A DNA stretch of 64,000 nt from assembly GCA_022837635.1 (NCBI GenBank), contig JALHFY010000001.1, positions 381,693-445,692 of the forward strand, written 5' to 3'. Position 1 is the first letter of the stretch. Each line of letters opens with the position of its first letter. A program made the position numbers and the translations under genes. Below, piece by piece: positions 13,972 to 39,387 of the stretch. This stretch comes from Candidatus Shapirobacteria bacterium (lineage in GTDB: Bacteria; Patescibacteriota; Microgenomatia; UBA12405). The notes under the pieces were generated by a model that was given only the letters and a program-made list of their open reading frames with translations, made no database searches and was not told the origin of the DNA.

Positions 13972-14196
13972 TTTTTAGCTTGATGATTAATATGGTCAAT
14001 TATATCGTGAATAATCATTTTTTGGTTATCTTTATCCATGTTTTCCAATACAATTGGTAGTATAGTCTAGTCACAACGATAGTTCTTGACACCCATAGAT
14101 TGACTACATAACTTTTAAAATATTGAAATAATTAACTGTTGATCAAGAATGTGATTTCACTAGAGGCTCTGGGATTAGGTTAAAAATTAGTTCAAA

Positions 14197-14799
14197 TTAT
14201 TTTACTGGGCACAAATCTTTCTTCAGTTTGATTAGATTTTCATAATCTTTACTAGTATCTCTCCATTTATCACTATGATTAATTGGAGTTACACCTTCGT
14301 AGTAAGTTATTTGTTGTTCAGGAAAAGGTAGGTATTGAACAACATCGTCAAAATCTATAAAACCAATGGTTCTTGAATCATCACTATTCTTTCTATTATC
14401 ACCAAGAACAAAAAGTTTATGTTCTGGAACTGTGACTTTTTGACACTCCTCAAGAAATAACCCTTCTAATCCATGATCTTTTGACCATTGATATTGTTCT
14501 GGAAGAGAAAAGGTTGAATTTGGTTCCATAGTGTAAGGTTCTTCAATGTATTTATCATTTATGAAGACACCACCACCTTTAATTTCAATGGTATCACCTG
14601 GTAAAGCGATAACTCTTTTGAAGAAAAAATAATTTGGTCTACTCAATTTAGTTATCATTGATCTAGTAATCTCATTTGAAAAAGCGACAGTATCACCTCT
14701 TTGAAATTGATAGGCCTTGTTTAATTTGTAGAAAATATTTTTGTAAGGGTAATATTTATGAATACTTCCGCCCGGAAATGATGGTGCCATTGAATTCAT
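14197..14799 (-). CDS. lepB: Signal peptidase I (S26) catalytic domain, with no N-terminal membrane anchor in the ORF
   Basis: Box B-like NSMAPSF (Ser), box D KRVIALPGD (Lys), box E GDNRKNSDDSRTIGFI. 200 aa with no hydrophobic N-terminus. Confidence 0.65.
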   Translation of the reverse strand: MNSMAPSFPGGSIHKYYPYKNIFYKLNKAYQFQRGDTVAFSNEITRSMITKLSRPNYFFFKRVIALPGDTIEIKGGGVFINDKYIEEPYTMEPNSTFSLPEQYQWSKDHGLEGLFLEECQKVTVPEHKLFVLGDNRKNSDDSRTIGFIDFDDVVQYLPFPEQQITYYEGVTPINHSDKWRDTSKDYENLIKLKKDLCPVK

Positions 14800-14803
14800 A
14801 TCA

Positions 14804-15283
14804 TTAAGTGGTGGTTATCTGATAACGCGTTCCTAAAAATATTTCATCTGTAGCCACATTGTAACCAACAATGTAAGCCAAAAACCAAACTGGAGCGATA
14901 ATGATTCCATCAATCAATAAAACTGACCATCGAACATCTTTTAGTTTTGGTTTTTTGTAAAAAAAAGATTTAATTAAAACAATTAAAAGGTAAAGAGGGA
15001 AAATTGGAACGATAAATAAAAAAATTAGAAATGATTTAACTTTATTTTGCTTTTTATCTTCCCTTTGACTAATACTCAATTCAACAAACTTATACATTAA
15101 AAATAAAAAAGATAAGGTACCAATTAATATACTTCCAAAGAGAGAAACAAAGGCAATATATTTGATTGATGAAAGATTTTCATTAAATGGTCCGTTTTGA
15201 ATTCTACCAACGTACAAGCTAATCAAAAAGACCACTAAACAAACAGCCCAAATTATCAATTGCTTTTTAATTTCTTTTTTCAT
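14804..15283 (-). CDS. Hypothetical polytopic membrane protein
   Basis: 159 aa with about 4 predicted TM helices. Ends 4 nt before the signal peptidase ATG, in a different frame. Confidence 0.4.
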   Translation of the reverse strand: MKKEIKKQLIIWAVCLVVFLISLYVGRIQNGPFNENLSSIKYIAFVSLFGSILIGTLSFLFLMYKFVELSISQREDKKQNKVKSFLIFLFIVPIFPLYLLIVLIKSFFYKKPKLKDVRWSVLLIDGIIIAPVWFLAYIVGYNVATDEIFLGTRYQITTT

Positions 15284-15633
15284 ATTAATGTTAAATAATT
15301 TTTCTTTCTGAAAGGTGTCATTAGAAGGTTTCCGACTATCTCTAAAACCAGGAGAACTTTTAGAATAAATCTGATAATAAAAAGTTCAAATGATGTAATT
15401 GAAGCTAATATTTCATTCATTTTTTGAATTAATTTACTAACTTACCGTTTGCAAGGTTATGTTTAGCTAAGTTGTATACTGTAAGTGTAGCACGAAGATC
15501 TCAATAAAATTATAGCGTCGAATTAGTGTTGTTAAGAGGAAGTTTATTAAAAAAAAGAAAAATTTTGTGTGATTAATCAGATAAATTAAAGTATTTTTTA
15601 TAAAAAAATCAAGGAAAAGATAAGACAGAATGT

Positions 15634-16647
15634 TTAGGAGAATTGTTGAAGTAATTGTTTTAAATTATCACGAGTACTGTCGACCAGGTATTGCGAAATT
15701 TTTATTTTAGGATCGATACTGAGGGCATCAAGATTAAGACCGGCAGCGGCTCGTTCTAAAAGGGCTAAATTCAGTAGTTTTTTTGAGGTAGAAAAAGAAT
15801 TGATATGAGACAACCAGAGTTGACGCTGTGATTCAATTTGAGCAGGAGTAATATCGGAAACTTGAGGCAGGTGATACATAAACCAATGATAGGCAAAAAC
15901 AGTATCGTAACCAGGCGGACGCCAGGACCAGTAAAGGTTGGATAAAAGAATAATTTGCCGACCAGATTGATAAAGATCGGTATAGGAAAAGTGACCATGA
16001 ACAAATTCGTAGTCGATATGTTGATACTCACGAGATAAAATTTGAACAGCCTGGTCAATAAGTTGAAAATCTTCTTTTTGTCTAAAAGGATGAGTAGGAT
16101 AAATTTTTAAACTACTTTCACGCCAACGAACAAAATTATCTTTAATTGAATCAGAGATACTTTGACTTGGTTTTTTTACCCAAGGTTGCTGTCGACAATT
16201 TTGACGATATTCATGATAAATTTCAAAAAAATTGTCAACTTGAGAGAGAGTAGTCGGAAGAGTGATTAGAGGAGAAGAGGGTATGTCTTCCATAATCAAG
16301 GCTTCGTATTCTTGATCAGAATTCCAGGCAAGGTGTTGGTAAAGATGAGGAGGGCGAATAATTAAACTATGATTATTTTTGACAAAAGATTGAATCATGG
16401 TGGCTTCACTAATATTAGGTTTGACGCCTTGAATTTTTAAAATAACATTTTTACCTTGGTAAGTACCGCGATAATGAACAGCTCCGACTTTAGATGAACC
16501 CCACCAGGAACTTCTATTAACCAAACGTTCAGGGATAAAACCTGTATTTTGGGTTATATCTTGCAAAATTTTCTTTTCCCGATCAGCCAAACTTTTAGCT
16601 CGAGTGAAAGCATGAGAAATTTCGTTTTGTTTGGGTAAATTTGTCAT
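15634..16647 (-). CDS. Phosphotransferase (APH/choline-kinase-like protein-kinase fold) family protein
   Basis: 337 aa; VILKIQG (beta-3 Lys), an HGHFSYTDL catalytic-loop variant of HGDxxxxN, and a downstream W/D-rich segment (SNLYWSWRPPGYD). Confidence 0.45.
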   Translation of the reverse strand: MTNLPKQNEISHAFTRAKSLADREKKILQDITQNTGFIPERLVNRSSWWGSSKVGAVHYRGTYQGKNVILKIQGVKPNISEATMIQSFVKNNHSLIIRPPHLYQHLAWNSDQEYEALIMEDIPSSPLITLPTTLSQVDNFFEIYHEYRQNCRQQPWVKKPSQSISDSIKDNFVRWRESSLKIYPTHPFRQKEDFQLIDQAVQILSREYQHIDYEFVHGHFSYTDLYQSGRQIILLSNLYWSWRPPGYDTVFAYHWFMYHLPQVSDITPAQIESQRQLWLSHINSFSTSKKLLNLALLERAAAGLNLDALSIDPKIKISQYLVDSTRDNLKQLLQQFS

Positions 16648-27252: not shown

Positions 27253-28596
27253 TTATCGACTCCACTCTGAGACAGTAATTTCTCGAAAATTATTTTCACT
27301 GTTTTGGGTGTAACCCAGTTCAGTTAAGATTTGGTGGTGGTTGAGGCCGTGAATTATTTCTCCGTAGGGAATCACTAAAAGATTGTTTTCAGTGGGAGTT
27401 TGGGTTTTGCTGTCAATAATATTAACCTCAGCTTGATAAAACTTAATCGGATCACTGAAAGAGGCAATCATGTAAACATTTTGTCCAGGATGGAGGGTTT
27501 GGGCTACAGCTTGCCAGTCTTCGCGGTGAAAATGTGGATTAAAAAGATAAATCAAAGTAAAAATTAAATAAATCCCGCCGATGAATATTTTGTTTCGTCT
27601 TGGGGTGACATTAATTGACAAAATAATAGTAATGATAGGCAAAAGATAAATAAAACGAAAATATTGCAATAGAGGCGATTTGAAGGAAAAGAGAGTGGCC
27701 AAAATTATCGGCAAAATTAAAATAATTTTTAACCAGTTAATTTTTTGATTACTTTTACTTAAAAAATAGGCAATGATTAAAGTCCAAATGCCAGCAATTA
27801 AATAATAGGAATATTTAGGACACCAACTGATTTTACCTAAACTAAATTTAAGCGGAATTAGGAGCAAGTTTTTAAGATTGACTTTACCTAAAACCAAGGA
27901 CCAGTTAGCAACATGGCTCAATGATAAAGTCGAATTATGGAGCTGAATTTTTAGAAGCGGCCAAATTGAAATAATGGCAATAAGAGTCCCAAGGTTAGTT
28001 AATAAAAAGGTTTTTTTATTGCTTTTGAAGAAAGAATAAATGGTCATGGCAGCCAATAAAAAAATGGAACCGTAAAAAGTGTGAAAAGCTAAACAGGCCA
28101 TTAAATTATATAAAAATAAATCGACTGAATTATGTTTACCGTCTTTGATCTTAAGGAAAAAAAAGAGAGCCAAAGTAAGCCACATGGTAGCCATGGCATA
28201 CATCCTTAATTCTTGAGAAAAATAGACAAAGAGAGGGTTGACGGCTAAAAAAATGGCCGCCCATAACCCCGTATTTTGGTTTTTGAGTCTTTTGGCGATC
28301 AAATAGACGACATAAATAGTGACCAGGGAAAACAAGACCGAACTTAAACGGAGAAAAAAGACATTTTTACCCCAAAGATTTTGCCAAAGATTAAGAAAGC
28401 AATAATATAATGGTGGGTGAAAATCATTAACGGAAAAATTGGTCACAATATCTTTGATGGGAAGAGCGGAAACATTGGCGGAAATAGCTTCATCTAGCCA
28501 TAAGGATTGATTCAGGCCAATTAATCTCAGAGCAAAAGCGATAATTAATATTAACCAGATCATTTTGATATTATATGCTAGTTTATGATAAACCAA
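27253..28596 (-). CDS. Glycosyltransferase family 39 (ArnT/PMT-like) polytopic membrane protein
   Basis: 447 aa, more than 10 TM segments. The N-terminal loop LWLDEAISANVS ... NDFHPPLYY resembles the DE/PPL motifs of GT39/GT83 enzymes. Confidence 0.65.
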   Translation of the reverse strand: MVYHKLAYNIKMIWLILIIAFALRLIGLNQSLWLDEAISANVSALPIKDIVTNFSVNDFHPPLYYCFLNLWQNLWGKNVFFLRLSSVLFSLVTIYVVYLIAKRLKNQNTGLWAAIFLAVNPLFVYFSQELRMYAMATMWLTLALFFFLKIKDGKHNSVDLFLYNLMACLAFHTFYGSIFLLAAMTIYSFFKSNKKTFLLTNLGTLIAIISIWPLLKIQLHNSTLSLSHVANWSLVLGKVNLKNLLLIPLKFSLGKISWCPKYSYYLIAGIWTLIIAYFLSKSNQKINWLKIILILPIILATLFSFKSPLLQYFRFIYLLPIITIILSINVTPRRNKIFIGGIYLIFTLIYLFNPHFHREDWQAVAQTLHPGQNVYMIASFSDPIKFYQAEVNIIDSKTQTPTENNLLVIPYGEIIHGLNHHQILTELGYTQNSENNFREITVSEWSR

Positions 28597-30341: not shown

Positions 30342-33300
30342 TTGAAAAATATATTCAAAAAACGAGTCTTTGACAAATTAGCGGCAATTTCCGCTGGTGT
30401 CTCGTTAATTCTCAACATCTTTTTGCCTTTATTAATAGTGATCCCTGTCCGGGCTGAAGAAATAGCAGCCTCTCCATCTGCGGAAGTAATAGAGGCTACT
30501 CCTACCCCTGAACCTACTGCCGCTCCAGAACTGACTCCCGCTCCCGAAGTTACTCCAACTCTAGAACCGTCATTAACTCCAACTGAAACTCCTGAAAATG
30601 CTGATGTTGGTGCTACTGAGGCAGCTGCTACTCCAACTGAAATTGAAGCTAAGCCTACGATTGCGAATGAGAAAAATGATGATAGTGATAAAGAAGAAGT
30701 TTCTCAAAAGTTCCGATCTACTCTTTTAAGTGCTTCTCAGTCAAGCAAGTCCGGTCAATACTCTATTTCTTCTACTAATGGTATTTGGACTAAGGTTGAG
30801 GGAACAAATAACTATGATGGTTTGAATACTGAGGAGATAAGATGGGGATCTGCCTCTTCAGGATCTTCTAGAAGTGGTTTAAGATTTGATGGTGTTGGTA
30901 CAACAACCAGTTTTAACGCCAATGAAAAGTTTTTAATAGGTGGTTTAACTCATTTTAATTGGCCTATATCGGGATCAGCAGCGAATAAAGCAACTCTAAA
31001 AATTACCCTAAATTTTTCAAATCCCTCTATTACGCCCTCGCCTACATTTACATATGATTTTGGTATTGAAGAAACAACCAATACTTACAATTTACAGGAT
31101 TGTAAATATTATGGTAAGCCTGAGCAACAAAGTCAGACTGCTTGCGATGACGTAATTACATTTCCTAATGGAGGTTATGGTGAAGAGGAATACACTATAG
31201 GGGATATGAAGTATACCCTAAAGATTGACGGTTTTCAAAATTCATATCCTGATGGTAAAACGGTTAGTAAGTTCATAACAGAAGAAAGAAAAAATAATGA
31301 GGCATTTTTAGTCGGCCATCTCAGTTCTGTCTTGGTTGAAAGCCCAAAAATCTCCATCATTAAAAAAGTGAATGGTTACGATGCAAATACTCCTGGAGAA
31401 GCAGTCCAAGTCACCGCAGGAGAAACAGTCAACTTTACATATATTGTTCAGAATACAGGTAATGTTAAATTAACAGGCATCTCAGTAACTGACAATAAAG
31501 GAGTTAATGTAAGTTGTCCTAAAACAGAATTAGATCCTGGCACGAGTATGACCTGTACTGGTAGTGCTAAAGCTATTGCGGGCAAATATACTAATATCGG
31601 TACAGTAAATACAACATCTCATCCATCAGTCACAGCTAGTGATCCTGCAAACTATGTCGGTCTTGTTCCTAAAATTAAAATTTGTCATAGAACCGCCTCA
31701 CATACAAGTCCTTATGAAGTAATTGAGCCTGATGCATCTGGAGATTTAAATGGTCATGTGGGACACACGGGGGATATTTGGTTCCCAGGTATAACAGTGG
31801 CATGGGGAGATATTATTAAACCGTTTACATATTACGAAAATGGGGAGCAAAAAGAATTTACAGGCCTCAATTGGAGTGAATATGGACAAGCGGTGTATAA
31901 CAATGACTGTAAAATTCCACAAGGTAAGATAATTATCAACAAAGTTTTAAGCCCAGCCTCTAACGACAACACAGAATTTACAATAGTAGGTAGTGGTACT
32001 CCTGCAATAACAGGTTCTCCTACTTTCTTGTATGAGAGTGGCAGTAATGTCGGAAGTATCAGTAGAAATAAATCTCATACATACAATGCCATGCCCGGTA
32101 CTTATAATATTGGAGAAACAGTTCCGGAAGGATGGAATCTAGTCAGTAATACGTGTTCAAATATCGAAATTGCGAATAACGAAACTAAAGAATGTACTAT
32201 TACTAACACACAAGATGGTTCATTAACTATTGTCAAGAAAGCATTACCATTTGGTATGGATTCATTTGGATTTACTCTGACAGGTAATGGAGTGAGTGAA
32301 CAATTCAGCTTAGTTGATAATTCAGGGACGGAAGATGCAAGCAAGACATTTAGTTTGAAAGCAGGGACATATGCAGTTGCGGAAGATAATTACGACGATT
32401 GGAAGACAACAGCTTCTTGTACAGGTGGACAGACAATAGATAATATTGTCCTAAACGCTGGCGATAGTGTAACTTGTACGTTTGCTAATACAAAATATGG
32501 GTCTATTTCAGGTCATAAATGGAATGATGCTAGTGGAAAAATAGAAGATCCAAATACAGATTTAACTCCAGTTTCTGGATGGACAATCATTCTGAAAGAT
32601 AAAAATGGAGCTGAGATTACTAGAACAACAACTGATGTAAATGGATACTATAAGTTTACCGGATTACTACCTGCAGACTACATAGTCACGGAGGGTTTGG
32701 AAGCTGGTTGGATAGTTTTGGCTGGTGATAGTAGAGATGTGGAGTTGAATGCTGGTAATAACGAGACTAATGTTGATTTCATTAATGTTAAATACGGTAG
32801 TATCAAAGTCTTAAAGAACGTTGATGTAGATGGGAACGGTCAGGTGGATACAGAAGGTGCTACAGATTGGGAATGGTTATTGGGAATGGATACAAAGGCG
32901 AGGATATATGCTACAGGAGAGACAGCTAAAAACTTATTGCCTGGAGTTTATAAAGTATCAGAAACACAGAAAAATGGCTATCATATAACGTCATTAGTAT
33001 GTACAAATAATGGTCAAGAGATTGTTAATGAGGCAAGTGAAAGTGTGAAAATTTCGTTAGAGTCGGGAGATAATGTTGTATGTACCTTTACCAATACCAG
33101 AGACACGGGTACATTAATTGTTAGAAAAGAAGTTGTTAATGATAATGGTGGTGCTCTGACAGCCAAGGACTTTTCATTTAAGATTGATACCGGTAAAGGG
33201 ATTGTTTTTGATCAAGATCCCACAAATCCTTTATTGGGTGAGAATACGTATAAGACTTTCCCAACTGGTACCTACACTATTACAGAACTAGAGGCAAATC

Positions 33301-36300
33301 AAAGAGGATATGCTACCTCATACAACAACTGTGACAAAGTAGAGGTTAAGAAAGGCGAAACAGCTGTTTGTACAATTACAAACAATGATAAAGCAGCAAA
33401 GCTAACTGTAATCAAGAAAGTCATTAATGATAATGGGGGAACAGCAAAAGTAAAAGATTTTGAAATTAAATTAAATGATAAAGACTTGGAATTTAAGTTA
33501 GATCAAGGAAGTGTAAGTAAATATATTTCTACTTATATTTCTACTCCAGAAGTCCAATCTAACACGGAGTATAAATTGACAGAAATTGATCATCCTGGTT
33601 ATAAGGAAGGAAAATGGAGTTGTAAGCCCAAAAAGGACGATGGAACTGGAGATGCAAGACCAGTACCCACCAAGGAAGGGCCGTCAACCTCTTTCACCTT
33701 ATCTCCAGGAAAGGAGATTGTTTGCACGATTACCAACGACGATATTGCCCCTTCGTTACAACTAATTAAGAAGGTCGTTAATGATAATGGTGGTACAGCA
33801 GTGGCAACCGATTGGAATCTAAAGGCAGAGGGTCTAACTCCAATTTCGGGAGATGGTAGTGCTATAAGTGGAAATAAATTCAAGGCTGGTGCATATACTT
33901 TGAGCGAAAATAGTGCTGTCACAGGATATAGTGCTAGTGATTGGAATTGTACAAATGGGATTGAGGTTGATGGCAACAACGGAATAACCCTGGGAATAGG
34001 TCAATCTACAGTCTGTACCATTACTAATGATGACGTGGCGCCAACTCTTAAACTAGTTAAGAATGTTGATAATGGCCATGGTGGTCCATCAAATGCAAAT
34101 GATTGGACATTAACTGCAAAATCAGAAACAGAAGAATTCAGTAATCTTGGTGATGCTGATACGACTCACACAGTTACGGCAGGAGTTGTCTATACATTGA
34201 GTGAGACAGGTCCAGAAAAATATGAAGCAGGAGAATGGGAGTGTACCAATAACATTGTGGTTGATAATAATAATGGAATAACTCTCGGATTGGGACAATC
34301 AACTGTTTGTACAATTACCAATACCTACTCACCTGGTTGTATTGAAGGTGAAGGTATTGGAGCTGATATAGTTGCTTCGGTTACACCAGGCACCAGATAT
34401 GACGGTAATCCTATTGTAAACTTGGGAAGTGAGGATAGAACAAAACCAGGAAATGCATTGGGTACAGCTGATGATAAATTCTACAGTTTGGGTAAAGATG
34501 GAGAGATTGAGCTGGAGTTTACCGGTTTCGTAGAAAATGTAGCCGGTAACGATTTCTCTATTCATGAGGTAACTTGGAATAGAGATAGCGACAAAGAAGA
34601 AAAGGCAGAAGTGTATGTTAAAAACAGCAATTCTGACTGGAAATATCTTGGAGAAGCCAGCAGTTTCAGTGATGGAAATAATGATGGAAAAAGAGATGGA
34701 ATCACACATTTTGATTTTGGAAACACAGGATTACCTTGGATAAATGCTATTAAACTGGTTGAGTCATCGGTGGGTCAGGATAATAACGATGACGGCTTTG
34801 ATTTGAATGCTATCGTGGCCGCCAGTCATGTTTGTAAAGAACCTTCTGTATCACAAGTAAAGATTTGTAAAGTGGATAATAAAAATAGACCATTGTCAGG
34901 CTGGGATGTGATGTTAAAAGAAAAAGTAGATGGTCCTAGTTTGATAAATGTATCCAACGATAGTGGGACTAATTCCTCTGATTTACTAGCAGGAAAATAC
35001 CTTATCAAAGTTAGTGGTACATATAGATATGGAAATTCTTCAATGAATGCTGACGCAGGCTTTTCGTACAGACCACAGGGAATACCCAGTGGTTGTGATT
35101 GTTGGTTAGATGGACACGAAATATCAGGAGGTTTAATGGCTCGGGTAAATGGAGAGGCAGTAAATTGGGGAGCTTATAATGATGGTCATGTTTACACATA
35201 TGTATATGATCATAATGGGGGAAAAATAAACATATCAATCCGGGACAATATATATATAGATAATGTAAATAATAATAATTTCCAGTTTGAAATTTTCAGA
35301 ATACCGGAAGGTTATTATGGTACTACTGGTAACGATGGGTGTGTTATCTTAAACAACGTCCTTTATGGAGATTACATTCTTGATGAAATCTTGAAAGAAG
35401 GATGGATTAATGTCTCTGGGAAAGGAAGTTCGGTGTCAGTAGATTCTTTAGAAGAAGTCTTTACATTAGTAAACAGAGAAGATGCTCCTGTAACCATAGT
35501 GGCGACCAAAATTGTCTGTAATAATGAAGCAGATTTGCCAAATTGGGGTTATGGAGCTCCTGATAATATAACCAAGGATACGGCTTCAAATTTCCTGGCT
35601 TCACGTCCCAATTGTCGTCGAGAATCTGGTTGGAGTTTCCAATGGGGAAATGATAGTTCAACTAACCCAGGAGATACGCACACAGGAGAAGCATCCGGTT
35701 GGCACACCTTTGGTCCGACTGGTTCTGACGGAGTTGCTACTGTCAATATTAACGACTTTGGCAACACTTCTCAAATTAAGGTGAGAGAGGTTTTGAAAGA
35801 AAATTATATTCCGTTTACATATTTAACCAACAAAAACAATTCCAACAATGTGTCTGCAGAAATCTATTGTCACACCGATGTTTTGAATTATGACAACGAT
35901 GATAGATTTATACCCGAATACGGAAATACCTATTATTGTGTTGCTTGGAACGTGGAAAAGAATCCATTGTTATCGATAGTGAAGAGTGGTGCTTTTGTTG
36001 ATGGAAATGCCAATGGTTTTGCAGATGTGGGAGAGACTATCAACTATAGCTTCACAGTTAAAAATGAAGGTAATGTCACTTTAACCAATGTGACTGTCAC
36101 CGATCCTAAAGTGACTGTGATTGGTGGTCCGATTACACTTAATGTGGGTCAAACTGATGCCACTACATTTACCGCTTCTTATGTGTTGACTCAGGATGAT
36201 GTTGACACTGGAAAAGTAGATAACACCGCTACTGCTGATTCAGACGAATCAGAACCAGCGTCAGATGATGAGACCGTCACTTTTAATACGAAAAAACCCA

Positions 36301-38807
36301 CATTGACTGTTGTCAAAAAAGTTGTCAATGATAACGGTGGAGATACCACTATCAATGATTTTGAGATTAAATTAAATGACGACTTAATCACATTTGAAGA
36401 CGGAGTTGTAGATGGTACCACGACTACATACACTTCTACTCCGACAGTATCTACAAAGACAGAATATACCTTATCAGAAAAAGACCTTGAAGGATACGAG
36501 GAAGGAGATTGGAGTTGTATAGATGATACAGAGGATAATATCGCCATGCCGTTTACTTTATCGGCAGGTCAAAATGTAACTTGTACTGTCACCAATGATG
36601 ATATCTTTGGTCAAATCTCGGTCATTAAATTTAACGACGTTAATGGCAATGGTCAAATGGATGCAGGTGAAGAAACCTTGCCAAATTGGCAAATAAATCT
36701 AACTTCTCAAGATTCAAAAGTGACGAATGACGAAGGTTCAGTGGTATTTGATAAATTAATTCCCCAAACTTACTATCTTAGTGAAACTCTTCAGCCTGGT
36801 TGGACTCAAACCTCTATCAACTGTGGACAAGATCAAGTTAGAATTACCGCTCCCGGTGAAGCCTATGGTCATCACGGGGTTTGTTCTGGTTGGAATGGTT
36901 GTGAAGACGCCGCCACTTGTGCCAAATGGGCTTGTGAGGCTAAAGGTTATCAAAATTTAGTTTCCTATGGTGAAGTCAAGGGTTGTACCAAGTTTAATAA
37001 GTGTAATTTATTCTGGTCTCGCAACAAGGTTGACTATAACTGGGATAATCATTGTGATGTTTTGGGAGTTACAGACATTGTCTGTAGTAATTCCAGTTCT
37101 ACTCCCAGCCTAACTCCAATGCCAACGACTCCAACTCAAGCACAAAATGATAATAACTATCAAATTGTTTTGGACAAATCTAAAACAGTTCAATGCTACA
37201 TTGGTAATCGTTATATCACTCCTAAAATAACTCTCTCTAAGAGTAACAATGTTGGTTTGACACCTCAAAAAGTTGGGAATGAAGTTGTTTATACTCTTAA
37301 ACTTAAAGTTACCGATAATTTTGTCAAAGATTTGTCAGTAATCGATTTACCGCCAACCGGTTTTGTCTATAAAGCTGGTAGTTATCAGGCCAAAGTTAAT
37401 GGTAGTCCTGTAGCTATTGCCGAACCACAGTATCACTCTCCTGGCCAATGGTTTTTAGGTGACTTAAATAAGGATGATGAAGTGGAATTAACTTATACCG
37501 CCACGATTCAAAACTCGGTGGATCCGGGAACTTATAAAGATGCCGCCTGGGCCTATGCTTGTCAAAGCAGTACTGATTGTCAAATTGATAGTAGTGATAG
37601 AGTTTTGGCTCAAGCCGTCAATCCTGGTTATCTAAATACCACCTTTGTTGGGACTCAAGTGAAATTAATTGCCGAGGCTCCAGCTCAAGAATATTCAGTA
37701 AATAGAGAAGAAATCAAAGAAGGAGAAGTTTTGGGAGCGACGACAGGTTTACCGGCCACCGGAGCTAGTAACGGATGGTTGTGGGTCATAGGTAGTTTAT
37801 TGACCAGCGGCATGGCTTTAGTATTTGCCGGGATTAAGAAAAATAAAATCATGGCAGTCATTCTGGCCCTATTTATGGTGACTCTTTTTATTCCTAAATA
37901 TACTTTAGCGGCTGATTCGGACTTATTCATTGCCTTGGAGAGTCCAGCCAGTCCTAATAACCAAAGTAAATTTAACCTAGCTTTTACAGCTTTGGATATG
38001 TTAAATCGACCCATAGTGGTCAAGTGTTTCAAAATCAATCCGGATAACAGTGAAGTGCAATTGGGAGGCAATATTAACTTGAAAGCCGGTGGTAACTCCG
38101 GTAATTGTAGTCTGGAGAGTTCACCTTTGAGTGAAAGCGGTAAAAATTACCGATTTTATGCAGTAGCTTCAAGTGGAGCTGATAGTTACAAAAGTGAAGT
38201 GGTTTCAGTGGATTACAATACTGATTTACCGGGAGTACCAACTGATTATTCTAAAGAAAAAGAAGGCAGTTGCCGCTTTAAGCTAAGCTTTAGAGCCAGT
38301 AATGACGGAAAAACTAAAGTTGTCAGAATCTATCGTTCAGAGCAAAATAAATTTAATGCCGATAGTCACACTCAAATTGGAGAGGTGGGTATTGATCCCG
38401 GTCAATGGGGTAGCTTTACCGATGTTAATGTTCCCGATTGTAACAAAACTTATTATTACGCCATTCGGGCTTTTGATGAGGCCAATAATGGCAGTGGTTT
38501 AGCCGGTGATTCAAACACAATCGTGACGACTGTTACTACTACCACTACTACTACTGTCAATGACAGTAATATTACTGACACTACTGGGGCAATCAGAGTT
38601 GCAGATAGTAATATTCCTGGCGAAGAAGAGATAGCTAATGCCGAGGAAAGTGCCGGTGAGGAAAGTGAGACAAGTGGAGAAGGTAGTGTTTTGGGAACCA
38701 CTGAGGAAGTAGGTAAAAACAATAAAATAAAGTTGCTTCTAGTAGGGGCTCTGATATTAATCGCTATAATTGTCTATGTCAGTCGCCGTTCCCGCCGTCA
38801 AAAATAA
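30342..38807 (+). CDS. Giant secreted cell-surface protein (about 2,821 aa), likely an adhesin
   Basis: TTG start and signal peptide (IVIPVRA/EE). A P/T/E-rich linker, at least 3 DUF11-like repeats, at least 3 Cna-B/SdrD-B-like modules, 5 repeats carrying V(V/I)NDNGG, and a Cys-rich module. LPATG plus hydrophobic segment plus KKNK at aa 2470-2502, then an in-frame signal peptide, FN3-like domain, Thr-rich stalk and C-terminal TM-RRSRRQK. Confidence 0.8.
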   Translation: MKNIFKKRVFDKLAAISAGVSLILNIFLPLLIVIPVRAEEIAASPSAEVIEATPTPEPTAAPELTPAPEVTPTLEPSLTPTETPENADVGATEAAATPTEIEAKPTIANEKNDDSDKEEVSQKFRSTLLSASQSSKSGQYSISSTNGIWTKVEGTNNYDGLNTEEIRWGSASSGSSRSGLRFDGVGTTTSFNANEKFLIGGLTHFNWPISGSAANKATLKITLNFSNPSITPSPTFTYDFGIEETTNTYNLQDCKYYGKPEQQSQTACDDVITFPNGGYGEEEYTIGDMKYTLKIDGFQNSYPDGKTVSKFITEERKNNEAFLVGHLSSVLVESPKISIIKKVNGYDANTPGEAVQVTAGETVNFTYIVQNTGNVKLTGISVTDNKGVNVSCPKTELDPGTSMTCTGSAKAIAGKYTNIGTVNTTSHPSVTASDPANYVGLVPKIKICHRTASHTSPYEVIEPDASGDLNGHVGHTGDIWFPGITVAWGDIIKPFTYYENGEQKEFTGLNWSEYGQAVYNNDCKIPQGKIIINKVLSPASNDNTEFTIVGSGTPAITGSPTFLYESGSNVGSISRNKSHTYNAMPGTYNIGETVPEGWNLVSNTCSNIEIANNETKECTITNTQDGSLTIVKKALPFGMDSFGFTLTGNGVSEQFSLVDNSGTEDASKTFSLKAGTYAVAEDNYDDWKTTASCTGGQTIDNIVLNAGDSVTCTFANTKYGSISGHKWNDASGKIEDPNTDLTPVSGWTIILKDKNGAEITRTTTDVNGYYKFTGLLPADYIVTEGLEAGWIVLAGDSRDVELNAGNNETNVDFINVKYGSIKVLKNVDVDGNGQVDTEGATDWEWLLGMDTKARIYATGETAKNLLPGVYKVSETQKNGYHITSLVCTNNGQEIVNEASESVKISLESGDNVVCTFTNTRDTGTLIVRKEVVNDNGGALTAKDFSFKIDTGKGIVFDQDPTNPLLGENTYKTFPTGTYTITELEANQRGYATSYNNCDKVEVKKGETAVCTITNNDKAAKLTVIKKVINDNGGTAKVKDFEIKLNDKDLEFKLDQGSVSKYISTYISTPEVQSNTEYKLTEIDHPGYKEGKWSCKPKKDDGTGDARPVPTKEGPSTSFTLSPGKEIVCTITNDDIAPSLQLIKKVVNDNGGTAVATDWNLKAEGLTPISGDGSAISGNKFKAGAYTLSENSAVTGYSASDWNCTNGIEVDGNNGITLGIGQSTVCTITNDDVAPTLKLVKNVDNGHGGPSNANDWTLTAKSETEEFSNLGDADTTHTVTAGVVYTLSETGPEKYEAGEWECTNNIVVDNNNGITLGLGQSTVCTITNTYSPGCIEGEGIGADIVASVTPGTRYDGNPIVNLGSEDRTKPGNALGTADDKFYSLGKDGEIELEFTGFVENVAGNDFSIHEVTWNRDSDKEEKAEVYVKNSNSDWKYLGEASSFSDGNNDGKRDGITHFDFGNTGLPWINAIKLVESSVGQDNNDDGFDLNAIVAASHVCKEPSVSQVKICKVDNKNRPLSGWDVMLKEKVDGPSLINVSNDSGTNSSDLLAGKYLIKVSGTYRYGNSSMNADAGFSYRPQGIPSGCDCWLDGHEISGGLMARVNGEAVNWGAYNDGHVYTYVYDHNGGKINISIRDNIYIDNVNNNNFQFEIFRIPEGYYGTTGNDGCVILNNVLYGDYILDEILKEGWINVSGKGSSVSVDSLEEVFTLVNREDAPVTIVATKIVCNNEADLPNWGYGAPDNITKDTASNFLASRPNCRRESGWSFQWGNDSSTNPGDTHTGEASGWHTFGPTGSDGVATVNINDFGNTSQIKVREVLKENYIPFTYLTNKNNSNNVSAEIYCHTDVLNYDNDDRFIPEYGNTYYCVAWNVEKNPLLSIVKSGAFVDGNANGFADVGETINYSFTVKNEGNVTLTNVTVTDPKVTVIGGPITLNVGQTDATTFTASYVLTQDDVDTGKVDNTATADSDESEPASDDETVTFNTKKPTLTVVKKVVNDNGGDTTINDFEIKLNDDLITFEDGVVDGTTTTYTSTPTVSTKTEYTLSEKDLEGYEEGDWSCIDDTEDNIAMPFTLSAGQNVTCTVTNDDIFGQISVIKFNDVNGNGQMDAGEETLPNWQINLTSQDSKVTNDEGSVVFDKLIPQTYYLSETLQPGWTQTSINCGQDQVRITAPGEAYGHHGVCSGWNGCEDAATCAKWACEAKGYQNLVSYGEVKGCTKFNKCNLFWSRNKVDYNWDNHCDVLGVTDIVCSNSSSTPSLTPMPTTPTQAQNDNNYQIVLDKSKTVQCYIGNRYITPKITLSKSNNVGLTPQKVGNEVVYTLKLKVTDNFVKDLSVIDLPPTGFVYKAGSYQAKVNGSPVAIAEPQYHSPGQWFLGDLNKDDEVELTYTATIQNSVDPGTYKDAAWAYACQSSTDCQIDSSDRVLAQAVNPGYLNTTFVGTQVKLIAEAPAQEYSVNREEIKEGEVLGATTGLPATGASNGWLWVIGSLLTSGMALVFAGIKKNKIMAVILALFMVTLFIPKYTLAADSDLFIALESPASPNNQSKFNLAFTALDMLNRPIVVKCFKINPDNSEVQLGGNINLKAGGNSGNCSLESSPLSESGKNYRFYAVASSGADSYKSEVVSVDYNTDLPGVPTDYSKEKEGSCRFKLSFRASNDGKTKVVRIYRSEQNKFNADSHTQIGEVGIDPGQWGSFTDVNVPDCNKTYYYAIRAFDEANNGSGLAGDSNTIVTTVTTTTTTTVNDSNITDTTGAIRVADSNIPGEEEIANAEESAGEESETSGEGSVLGTTEEVGKNNKIKLLLVGALILIAIIVYVSRRSRRQK
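37851..38807 (+). CDS. Possible separate gene: a signal-peptide / FN3-like / Thr-rich / C-terminal TM-anchored protein, in-frame with the giant ORF and with no stop between them
   Basis: The ATG at 37851 immediately follows the LPATG-TM-KKNK sorting signal. MAVILALFMVTLFIPKYTLAADSD is a canonical signal peptide. KTYYYAIRAFDEANNGSG is an FN3-like motif. A C-terminal TM plus RRSRRQK follows. Confidence 0.3.
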   Translation: MAVILALFMVTLFIPKYTLAADSDLFIALESPASPNNQSKFNLAFTALDMLNRPIVVKCFKINPDNSEVQLGGNINLKAGGNSGNCSLESSPLSESGKNYRFYAVASSGADSYKSEVVSVDYNTDLPGVPTDYSKEKEGSCRFKLSFRASNDGKTKVVRIYRSEQNKFNADSHTQIGEVGIDPGQWGSFTDVNVPDCNKTYYYAIRAFDEANNGSGLAGDSNTIVTTVTTTTTTTVNDSNITDTTGAIRVADSNIPGEEEIANAEESAGEESETSGEGSVLGTTEEVGKNNKIKLLLVGALILIAIIVYVSRRSRRQK

Positions 38808-39387
38808 GAAAACTAATATCTGGATTGTCTTGGGAGTAATATTGATGGCGTCAGCAATAATAATCGCCTATCTTACTTTTGCACCGGTATTGAAATCAGA
38901 AATAAAGTATCAATTGGTGGTAAAAAATAAAACAGTAGAAGAGAAGATAGTGCCGGTAGATACAGATTTTTCAGTGGTTATTCCCAAGATCAGAGCCAAT
39001 GCCCGAGTGGTAGAAAATGTCGATCCTTTTGACGCCAAAAATTACCAGTTGGCTTTGAGTCGAGGGGTAGCTCACGCCAAAGGAACATCAACTCCGGACA
39101 AAGGCAGTAATACTTTTTTATTTGCTCATTCAGCGGGTAATTGGTATCAAGCTAATCAATATAATGCTATCTTTTATCTCTTAAATAAATTGGAAAAAGG
39201 TGATGAAATTGTTCTTTATTTTAAGGATAAAGAATATGTTTATCAGGTAGAAGAACTCCAATATGTTGGAGGTGGAGAAACAAAATATATGAATGCTTCA
39301 GCGAAAAATAAATTAACTTTAATGACTTGTTGGCCACCAGGAACAACCTTGAAAAGATTGATAGTGATAGCTAAATTAAAAGATTAG
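38776..39387 (+). CDS. Sortase-family transpeptidase
   Basis: An N-terminal TM anchor, a TLMTCWP (TLxTC) catalytic Cys, a downstream conserved Arg (KRLIV), and FAHSAGN His. The ORF-track start is a TTG at 38770; the ATG at 38776 is preferred. Overlaps the end of the giant ORF. Confidence 0.7.
   Translation: MSVAVPAVKNKKTNIWIVLGVILMASAIIIAYLTFAPVLKSEIKYQLVVKNKTVEEKIVPVDTDFSVVIPKIRANARVVENVDPFDAKNYQLALSRGVAHAKGTSTPDKGSNTFLFAHSAGNWYQANQYNAIFYLLNKLEKGDEIVLYFKDKEYVYQVEELQYVGGGETKYMNASAKNKLTLMTCWPPGTTLKRLIVIAKLKD

Follow-up and report, generated by a model that had tools for sequence, protein, structure and literature searches.

Organization of the locus

The window analysed here, a stretch of 64,000 nucleotides (nt) from a Candidatus Shapirobacteria bacterium (assembly GCA_022837635.1, contig JALHFY010000001.1, positions 381,693 to 445,692 of the forward strand), contains an open reading frame (ORF) of 2,821 codons that encodes a giant adhesin and continues, without a stop codon, through the adhesin's own sortase sorting signal into a second exported membrane protein, referred to below as the module. 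The features of this precursor ORF and of the sortase gene that follows it are collected in Table 1. The sorting signal, composed of LPATG, a transmembrane (TM) segment and the basic sequence KKNK, occupies codons 2470-2502, and a further 319 residues follow KKNK in frame up to the stop codon at 38805-38807. An earlier reading made from the DNA letters and their translation only (the sequence-only reading) had placed a complete LPATG signal inside the ORF and not at its end, which is borne out by the translation and by hydropathy, and had described the in-frame continuation as a signal peptide, an FN3-like part, a threonine stalk, an acidic region and a C-terminal TM segment with the basic tail RRSRRQK, for which translation, hydropathy and an AlphaFold2 model all speak. 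That the window ORF passes its own sorting signal and runs stop-free into another exported membrane protein, as can be read directly off the DNA, is confirmed.

Only four hydrophobic segments were found by a Kyte-Doolittle scan of the whole protein, namely the N-terminal signal peptide, the post-LPATG segment with its hydropathy peak at amino acids (aa) 2487-2489, the internal signal-like segment and the C-terminal anchor, and the charges that flank them agree with the positive-inside rule. By rule-based assessment the internal segment has the parts of a Sec-type signal peptide, with KKNK as n-region, IMAVILALFMVTLFIPKY as h-region and the small residues at positions -3 and -1 of a predicted site between TLA and A; it begins at residue 2503 of 2,821 rather than at an N-terminus, where it is found in homologues encoded by separate genes (split homologues). 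After ADSD the protein continues for about 295 residues, ending with the TM segment and RRSRRQK. The adhesin part gives Pfam matches to SpaA_2 (seven), DUF7507, SpaA_4 and SdrD_B and a weak one to DUF11. The sorting signal itself scores 18.2 bits (E=0.0025, aa 2460-2503) with the Gram_pos_anchor model PF00746, compared to a cut-off of 20; the whole-protein Pfam scan did not report PF00746 for it, and no NCBIfam match was obtained. The nucleotide sequence of the junction is att aag aaa aat aaa atc atg. Because the architecture recurs in hundreds of homologues, it is far beyond chance.

Table 1. Features of the precursor ORF, the sortase gene and gene starts in the window
Feature	Position	Strand	Description
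Whole-precursor ORF	30342-38807	+	2,821 codons, TTG start; adhesin, internal sorting signal, internal signal peptide and membrane-anchored module
N-terminal Sec-type signal peptide	30342-30455	+	aa 1-38, MKNIFKKR...LIVIPVRA followed by EE; hydrophobic part aa 18-35; cleavage site predicted by the -3/-1 rule
Adhesin body, ~2,430 aa	30456-37748	+	prealbumin-like/SpaA-type and DUF11-type repeats (Pfam)
LPATG sortase recognition motif	37749-37763	+	aa 2470-2474; family-wide GEVLGA(T/S)T motif just before
TM1, sorting-signal hydrophobic segment ASNGWLWVIGSLLTSGMALVFAGI	37764-37835	+	by hydropathy; predicted stop-transfer helix
Basic loop KKNK	37836-37847	+	sorting-signal charged tail and n-region of the next signal peptide; holds the A5 run at 37839-37843
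TM2, internal signal-peptide-like segment I-MAVILALFMVTLFIPKYTLA	37848-37910	+	followed by ADSD; predicted signal peptidase I cut after TLA, 37910/37911
Module domain 1, beta-sandwich, Ig/FN3-like	37923-38216	+	AlphaFold2, module residues 25-122; invariant C59 and C86 (module numbering)
Module domain 2, FN3 domain	38241-38507	+	YYYAIRAFDEANNGSG is a classical FN3 F-strand/FG-loop signature; C141 and C197 invariant
Disordered Thr-rich and acidic linker (stalk)	38514-38720	+	pLDDT <50, module residues 228-289; includes the SVLG motif, found before LPXTG in the adhesin too
TM3 IKLLLVGALILIAIIVYV, basic tail SRRSRRQK and stop codon	38721-38807	+	membrane anchor of the module; helix 291-317, by hydropathy
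Sortase gene	38776-39387	+	start ATG 38776 or TTG 38770; N-terminal TM segment; His in FLFAHS, Cys in TLMTC, Arg in LKRLIV
Precursor stretches around LPATG considered as sortase-substrate peptides			GATTGLPATGASNG; EVLGATTGLPATGASNG
Gene starts checked for a Shine-Dalgarno sequence (examples)	44216, 44641, 45145	-	
Gene starts checked for a Shine-Dalgarno sequence (examples)	40738, 28585	+	

Distribution of the fused arrangement

A word-index protein search with a junction-spanning query returned 42 homologues, most of which are stand-alone proteins of 306-335 aa with an MKK-type signal peptide of their own, and at least 10 of which are fused, running upstream through the basic loop, the hydrophobic segment and LPxTG. 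The scan of species-representative genomes gave 52 true loci, all of them in metagenome-assembled genomes of Patescibacteria, and in 24 of the 52 a long ORF, which may reach 3,288 aa, ends with the module; each of these fused loci carries an LPxTG-like motif ~35-80 residues upstream of the start of the module match, and in 23 of them it fits LPxTG. Among metagenome contigs there are ~19 informative loci, of which 10 are fused. The most extensive search, an exhaustive profile search of 1.84 billion cluster representatives, detected 553 family members at E<=1e-30; the 143 new proteins inspected from the best 150 of these comprise 94 long ones (median 1,714 aa, up to 2,789 aa), in which the module lies at the very end, and 49 of stand-alone size, a fused share that is inflated by the clustering at 50% identity because the adhesin parts diverge fast. 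The module is preceded by an LPxTG-like motif in 93 of the 94 long proteins, and 88 of these 93 motifs fit LPxTG. Some fused members carry the database labels "LPXTG-motif cell wall-anchored protein" or "hypothetical protein".

The fused junctions do not have a common sequence, and many of them are free of homopolymers, such as cgtaagcgtcgccaaggaaaggtg in the locus L046. What they have in common, across the 24 loci, is an anatomy that consists of LPxTG, ~20-30 hydrophobic residues, a loop of 4-14 aa rich in Lys and Arg, a second hydrophobic segment and AxA. The position of TM1 is kept in all fused and split homologues, and Ala is present at position -1 of the internal signal in 30 of 31 fused homologues and at the corresponding position in 57 of 57 split ones, with a small residue at position -3 in most. 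A Met codon in or beside the loop is absent from about half of the fused loci, and in those the module can therefore be translated only within the fusion. The comparison with orthologous loci that the sequence-only reading had suggested has in this way found the fused arrangement in many relatives and, judged from this distribution, the fused layout is an inherited and natural trait of the family.

Split relatives and interconversion of the two states

In 26 of the 28 split genome loci, a giant LPxTG adhesin gene lies directly upstream of the module gene, and the way in which the two genes meet is informative. A large clade of the Daviesbacteria/Levybacteria/Gottesmanbacteria type has a strictly conserved ATGnnTAA, in which the TAA of the adhesin overlaps the start of the module by 8 nt, together with an AAGGAG Shine-Dalgarno (SD) sequence formed by the Arg/Lys codons for the adhesin's charged tail, so that one stretch of DNA serves three purposes in split species (among loci L006-L041). 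The nearest split relatives within the clade of the window (P0004/L057 and P0001/L058), which are ~50% identical, have ATGA overlaps instead (...SKKIKL* / MIKKLK... and ...LKKGKKI* / MKKII...), and in L029 both parts are in the same frame with a single stop codon between them (RRKK*FMKRIF). What separates the fused from the split forms is thus a frame change or a single stop codon in a stretch coding for Lys and Arg. Programmed +1 frameshifting in the split loci, for which the SD-like AAGGAG upstream of the overlap made a candidate, was set aside, as the spacing fits ordinary re-initiation.

According to neighbour-joining trees built from the module, both states, fused and split, are clade-inherited yet interleaved. 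Next to the fused pair of the window and L001 stands a sister group that holds the split P0003, P0004 and P0001 together with the fused L002, and the fused P0002 and L003 lie outside. The minimum number of state changes under parsimony is 3 for 50 taxa and 7 for 91 taxa, these being point estimates from two trees, and midpoint rooting makes the fused state tentatively the ancestral one. On this phylogenetic evidence, what is observed in the family is slow evolutionary toggling and not phase variation.

The sortase and the gene cassette

The ORF downstream of the module matches the sortase family PF04203 (E=3e-22) and scores 46.7 with TIGR01076, above its cut-off of 39.35. A sortase gene follows the module directly in 48 of the 52 genome loci, and the four exceptions are explained by contig ends no more than 250 bases from the module or, in L042 only, by a break in the module ORF of the stored sequence. 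Sortases are near-ubiquitous in Microgenomates (PMC6744442). The sortase ORF of the window overlaps the 3' end of the precursor by ~32-38 nt (38770-38807), and in about a dozen related loci tblastn matches to the sortase start before the end of the module ORF, overlaps which suggest translational linkage of all three products. The adhesin and the module being either fused or translationally coupled, a fixed proportion of the two is implied. Judged from gene order, the unit is one of adhesin, module and sortase, with the first two fused or coupled, and this cassette is conserved across Patescibacteria.

The junction and its near-stop

The sequence-only reading had drawn attention to the A5 run in the basic loop, where one extra A would change the sequence to aag aaa aaa TAA with an ATG just downstream. 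The sequence is as described, and the question is whether it carries any meaning. In this AT-rich and Lys-rich ORF, a +1 insertion at any of 25% of the positions is followed by a stop no more than two codons later, and runs of at least five A number 31 in the ORF and 345 on the plus strand of the window; among the 29 runs of the ORF that were scored (all but those in its last 300 bases), 4 behave like the junction run. The location of the run "one base short of a stop" is a coincidence at chance level.

Two close relatives from independent assemblies of different samples bear on the same question. One is Candidatus Shapirobacteria UBA1420 (L001), the module of which is 91% identical at the amino acid level, and the other is the Joint Genome Institute (JGI) contig Ga0116172_10002078 (L059), which was picked up by the protein-level scan only and is 95% identical over the junction and the first 220 module residues. 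The junction is in frame in both, as in the window, and keeps the A5 run, reading AAG AAA AAC AAA ATC ATG, and no insertion or deletion separates them from the window at this position. Since they carry AAC where the window has AAT, an extra A makes no stop in either of them. Between the window and L001, codons 2470-2526 comprise 42 identical, 12 synonymous and 3 non-synonymous codons and no insertion or deletion; selection on the junction, read in the fused frame, is therefore purifying. From these codon comparisons, a recent disabling frameshift can be set aside.

Proposed mechanism

In the model that we propose, the window carries a genuine, inherited polyprotein gene of a Shapirobacteria-like member of the Patescibacteria (Microgenomates), the product of which is probably processed by both the sortase and signal peptidase. 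A single ribosome would make the 2,821-aa precursor, the ~2,430-aa adhesin part of which would be sent through Sec by the N-terminal signal peptide until TM1, following LPATG, halts the transfer. The four-residue loop KKNK would then be cytoplasmic and have two roles, giving the sorting signal its charged tail and the following signal its n-region, with TM1 and TM2 forming a hairpin around this shared basic loop. TM2 would restart export, now of the tandem FN3-like module, which TM3 and RRSRRQK would fix in the membrane. The sortase encoded downstream may subsequently cleave between the T and the G of LPATG and move the adhesin to an acceptor, presumably a cell-wall precursor, while cleavage by signal peptidase I after the conserved AxA (between TLA and A) would free the module as a type-I membrane protein, the leftover TM hairpin of ~50 aa being degraded. 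The best guess for the module is that of a membrane-anchored partner which is needed in a 1:1 ratio with the adhesin and the sortase. Of the elements of this model, the sequence, its conservation, the gene cassette and the module fold are shown, while the topology, the two cleavages and the transfer to an acceptor are inferred on the established rules by which Sec inserts proteins and sortases act.

One attraction of this scheme is that it would account for the coexistence of the two layouts. Whether the halves are encoded by one ORF or by two overlapping genes would matter little, because they are cut apart anyway, and both layouts would for that reason be found among relatives, interconverted by frame changes in the Lys/Arg tail. 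Processing is supported by the fact that LPxTG and AxA are kept no less strictly in the fused forms than in the split ones, which depend on them, by the conservation of the module in the approximately half of the fused loci that have no Met at the loop, and by how freely the two layouts interconvert, as they should if both give identical mature products.

Weighing of the alternative explanations

The simplest alternative is that an assembly or sequencing error in the A5 run merged two ordinary genes, the true sequence being an A6 that reads ...GIKKK-TAA and then ATG. Such an error would place the stop codon right after a complete sorting signal with a start codon a few bases on, and split relatives do exist; against it, L001 and L059 independently show the same frame and the same A5 run with an AAC that yields no stop, most junction substitutions are silent when read in the fused frame, dozens of species are fused, some with homopolymer-free junctions, and the near-stop is at chance level. 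Moreover, the true split loci overlap (ATGnnTAA or ATGA) and start with a basic n-region (MKK.., MRK..), whereas the hypothetical second product of the window, MAVILALF..., would have none. We give this explanation, which the sequence-only reading had listed, next to no probability. Slipped-strand mispairing at the A-tract, toggling between the fused protein and two separate ones, is very improbable as well. The tract lies exactly at the junction, and the part of this idea that has stood is that fused and split states have been interconverted several times in evolution by frame changes in this Lys/Arg stretch; the tract, with only five A, falls short of the lengths at which slippage is known to reach a useful rate, the three related lineages agree in its length, which is not what is seen at contingency loci, and a sixth A in L001 or L059 gives no immediate stop, so that no neat two-gene alternative is available in the relatives. 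The ORF holds 31 such runs, the ~7 state changes among 91 taxa are inherited by clades and are not variable between strains, and an exact-pattern scan of JGI metagenome contigs for variants in A-run length (GCCGGRATYAAG N{3,9} AAAATCATGGCAGT) gave 0 matches.

The remaining alternatives accept the junction as real and concern its products. Most of the module may come from internal initiation at the ATG at 37851, as from a nested in-frame gene, with the fusion as a minor or irrelevant by-product, and an ATG does follow the loop in the window, in L001, in L059 and in about half of the fused loci, with an A-rich sequence upstream. The lack of an SD sequence at 37851 is uninformative, because most genes of the window start without one: of the 12 gene starts checked, most, those of ribosomal protein genes included, have no recognisable SD within 25 nt, and only 1 has AGGAGG. 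The presence or absence of an SD tells something only where fused and split loci of other species are compared. We hold internal initiation as the main source to be rather unlikely, given that there is no stop in the 2,503 upstream codons, so that the fusion is necessarily made, that the free product would lack a basic n-region, that the module is conserved even where no Met lies in or beside the loop, and that the strong SD (AAGGAG) of split relatives is absent from fused ones. It is also unlikely, in our judgement, that the fusion is real and remains unprocessed, the adhesin staying joined to the module as a three-TM protein with LPATG unused or with one cut only. A helical hairpin with a third TM segment would be a viable membrane protein, the two cleavages are predictions, and the sortase falls into no curated class; on the other side stand the equally strict conservation of LPxTG and AxA in the fused and split forms, the retention of the sortase gene beside the fused genes and the interconversion of the two states, which is easiest if the end products are equal. 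As a further variant, the sortase might join LPAT- to the module itself, at the N-terminal Ala exposed by signal peptidase or at the invariant Lys135, such that the two enzymes would together excise the TM hairpin and re-ligate the halves in a manner resembling protein splicing, and the adhesin would become mounted on a membrane-anchored FN3/Thr-rich stalk. If true, this would explain the 1:1 ratio of adhesin and module, the module as the most conserved part of the cassette and its C-terminus, which is similar to a sorting signal without LPXTG; nothing in the evidence speaks specifically for such ligation, and we regard it as improbable.

The comparative evidence favours a true polyprotein, the third possibility named in the sequence-only reading, with cleavage by the adjacent sortase and retention of the module in the membrane as its predicted steps. 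It has to be said that several points weigh against this reading. The topology is predicted from hydropathy, charge and the -3/-1 rule, and the cleavages and the acceptor are likewise predictions for every member of the family. The sortase passed none of the NCBIfam class models A-F, the best being class C with 60.7 bits against a cut-off of 160. The trees are neighbour-joining trees with midpoint rooting, which makes the direction of change between fused and split tentative, and some extra module may be made by internal initiation in the window and its two closest relatives, where an ATG follows the loop and genes mostly start without an SD.

The module and the adhesin body

The AlphaFold2 model of the module, computed from 29 homologues, has a mean predicted local distance difference test (pLDDT) score of 79, with values >90 for 183 residues, and consists of two beta-sandwich domains (25-122 and 131-219), a disordered Thr-rich/acidic segment (228-289) and a terminal helix (291-317). 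Block-mean pLDDT in domain 1 is mostly >90, with one block at 73, and the module has the FN3 beta-sandwich fold. Neither the 318-aa module nor either of its domains matched a Pfam family even at E<=10, and no NCBIfam family was matched; the only match of the module was that of its last TM segment to GG_III-CTERM, below threshold. The module is the best conserved part of the precursor, with 18 non-synonymous and 52 synonymous differences to L001. Over the adhesin body, in the same comparison, 622 codons differ non-synonymously and 377 synonymously, and insertions or deletions affect 50 alignment blocks, a pattern of divergence that fits diversifying or relaxed selection on what would be a host-binding surface.

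An (E/Q)VLG motif is found at most 14 aa before LPXTG in 23 of the 24 fused loci (37719-37748 in the window), and [VIL]LG occurs in the last 95 aa of 50 of 50 modules (38670-38700 in the window), compared to ~9% of 95-aa windows elsewhere in the adhesins. The module of L012 has an LPQTG of its own ahead of the C-terminal TM segment. The C-terminus of the module therefore resembles a sorting signal that has lost LPXTG. The stalk of the module includes TTVTTTTTTTV, a plausible target of O-glycosylation, and a glycosyltransferase gene of the PMT_2/dolichyl-phosphate-mannose type (27253-28596, minus strand, E=8.5e-17) lies ~1.7 kilobases (kb) upstream of the precursor gene. In a 432-aa JGI protein encoded on a 2.8-kb contig (P0005), a radical-SAM N-terminal half (PF04055) runs directly into the module at its middle, which probably reflects chimeric assembly or a pseudogene that has undergone rearrangement. 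The G+C content of the window is 0.306 at 14001-16000 and ~0.37-0.40 in the remainder.

Significance and comparison with known systems

By definition, and in the searches made for them, sortase sorting signals are C-terminal elements; here, in a large family of 553 representatives, most of the inspected members of which are fused, a complete signal is located ~320 residues before the protein ends. If the predicted processing is true, a sortase would also be a polyprotein-processing enzyme, one basic loop would serve two targeting signals, and the freely interconverting split and fused versions would amount to a natural control experiment. The analysis also identifies a tandem-FN3 membrane protein of high conservation that obligately accompanies the sortase/adhesin pair, a pair near-universal in Microgenomates (PMC6744442), for the biology of which host attachment is central and almost unstudied. 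For annotators it follows that such ORFs should not be "repaired" as frameshifts and that a C-terminal position should not be demanded of sortase substrates.

Literature searches on internal LPXTG signals, sortase polyproteins and sortases in the Candidate Phyla Radiation (CPR)/Patescibacteria, with most subscription journals outside their reach, returned no description of this arrangement, and a sortase substrate in which an internal sorting signal shares its loop with a second exported protein is widespread and apparently undescribed. LPXTG motifs away from the C-terminus are known from streptococci, the pneumococcal zinc metalloproteases having an N-terminal one. These streptococcal cases are heterogeneous and, unlike the family described here, have neither a conserved exported partner nor a fixed gene cassette. 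In a survey of proteins with YSIRK-G/S and LPxTG motifs, either motif was off its terminus in ~8.6% of the proteins, which was tabulated without explanation (PMC7644249).

The canonical C-terminal LPXTG signal and its sortase (PF00746 and PF04203) share with the window the LPATG motif, a hydrophobic segment of ~24 aa, the basic tail, a SpaA/DUF11-type adhesin and the neighbouring sortase gene. The present system differs from it in that 319 residues follow the signal, that the basic tail doubles for a second export signal and that the sortase scores below the cut-offs of classes A-F. Coupled overlapping gene pairs of the ATGA and ATGnnTAA types are exactly the layout of the split relatives, from which the fused form differs by a frame change in the overlap region. 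Ordinary gene fusions do not allow both products to be released, whereas here a hairpin of sorting signal and signal peptide joins two exported proteins that could both be set free.

An experimental precedent consists of the Seb-sorting signal-MalE/BlaZ hybrids of Staphylococcus aureus that Navarre and Schneewind (1994 and later) are said to have made, in which a sorting signal placed before another protein was reportedly still cut at LPXTG and the C-terminal fragment stayed with the cell, the downstream protein being cytoplasmic and the construct artificial. The arrangement in the window differs in being natural and conserved, and in having a second signal sequence that would re-export the downstream part. 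In flavivirus-type membrane polyproteins, stop-transfer and internal signal sequences alternate and host signal peptidase makes cuts between the products. These polyproteins have in common with the precursor of the window the single ORF, the stop-transfer helix, the short cytoplasmic loop, the AxA-type internal signal and, as is proposed here, products in a 1:1 ratio. The precursor differs from them in being bacterial, chromosomal and without homology to them, and in that one of its two cuts would be made by a sortase transpeptidase that also attaches the upstream product. With these differences taken into account, a viral membrane polyprotein may be regarded as the closest functional analogy of the adhesin-module precursor.

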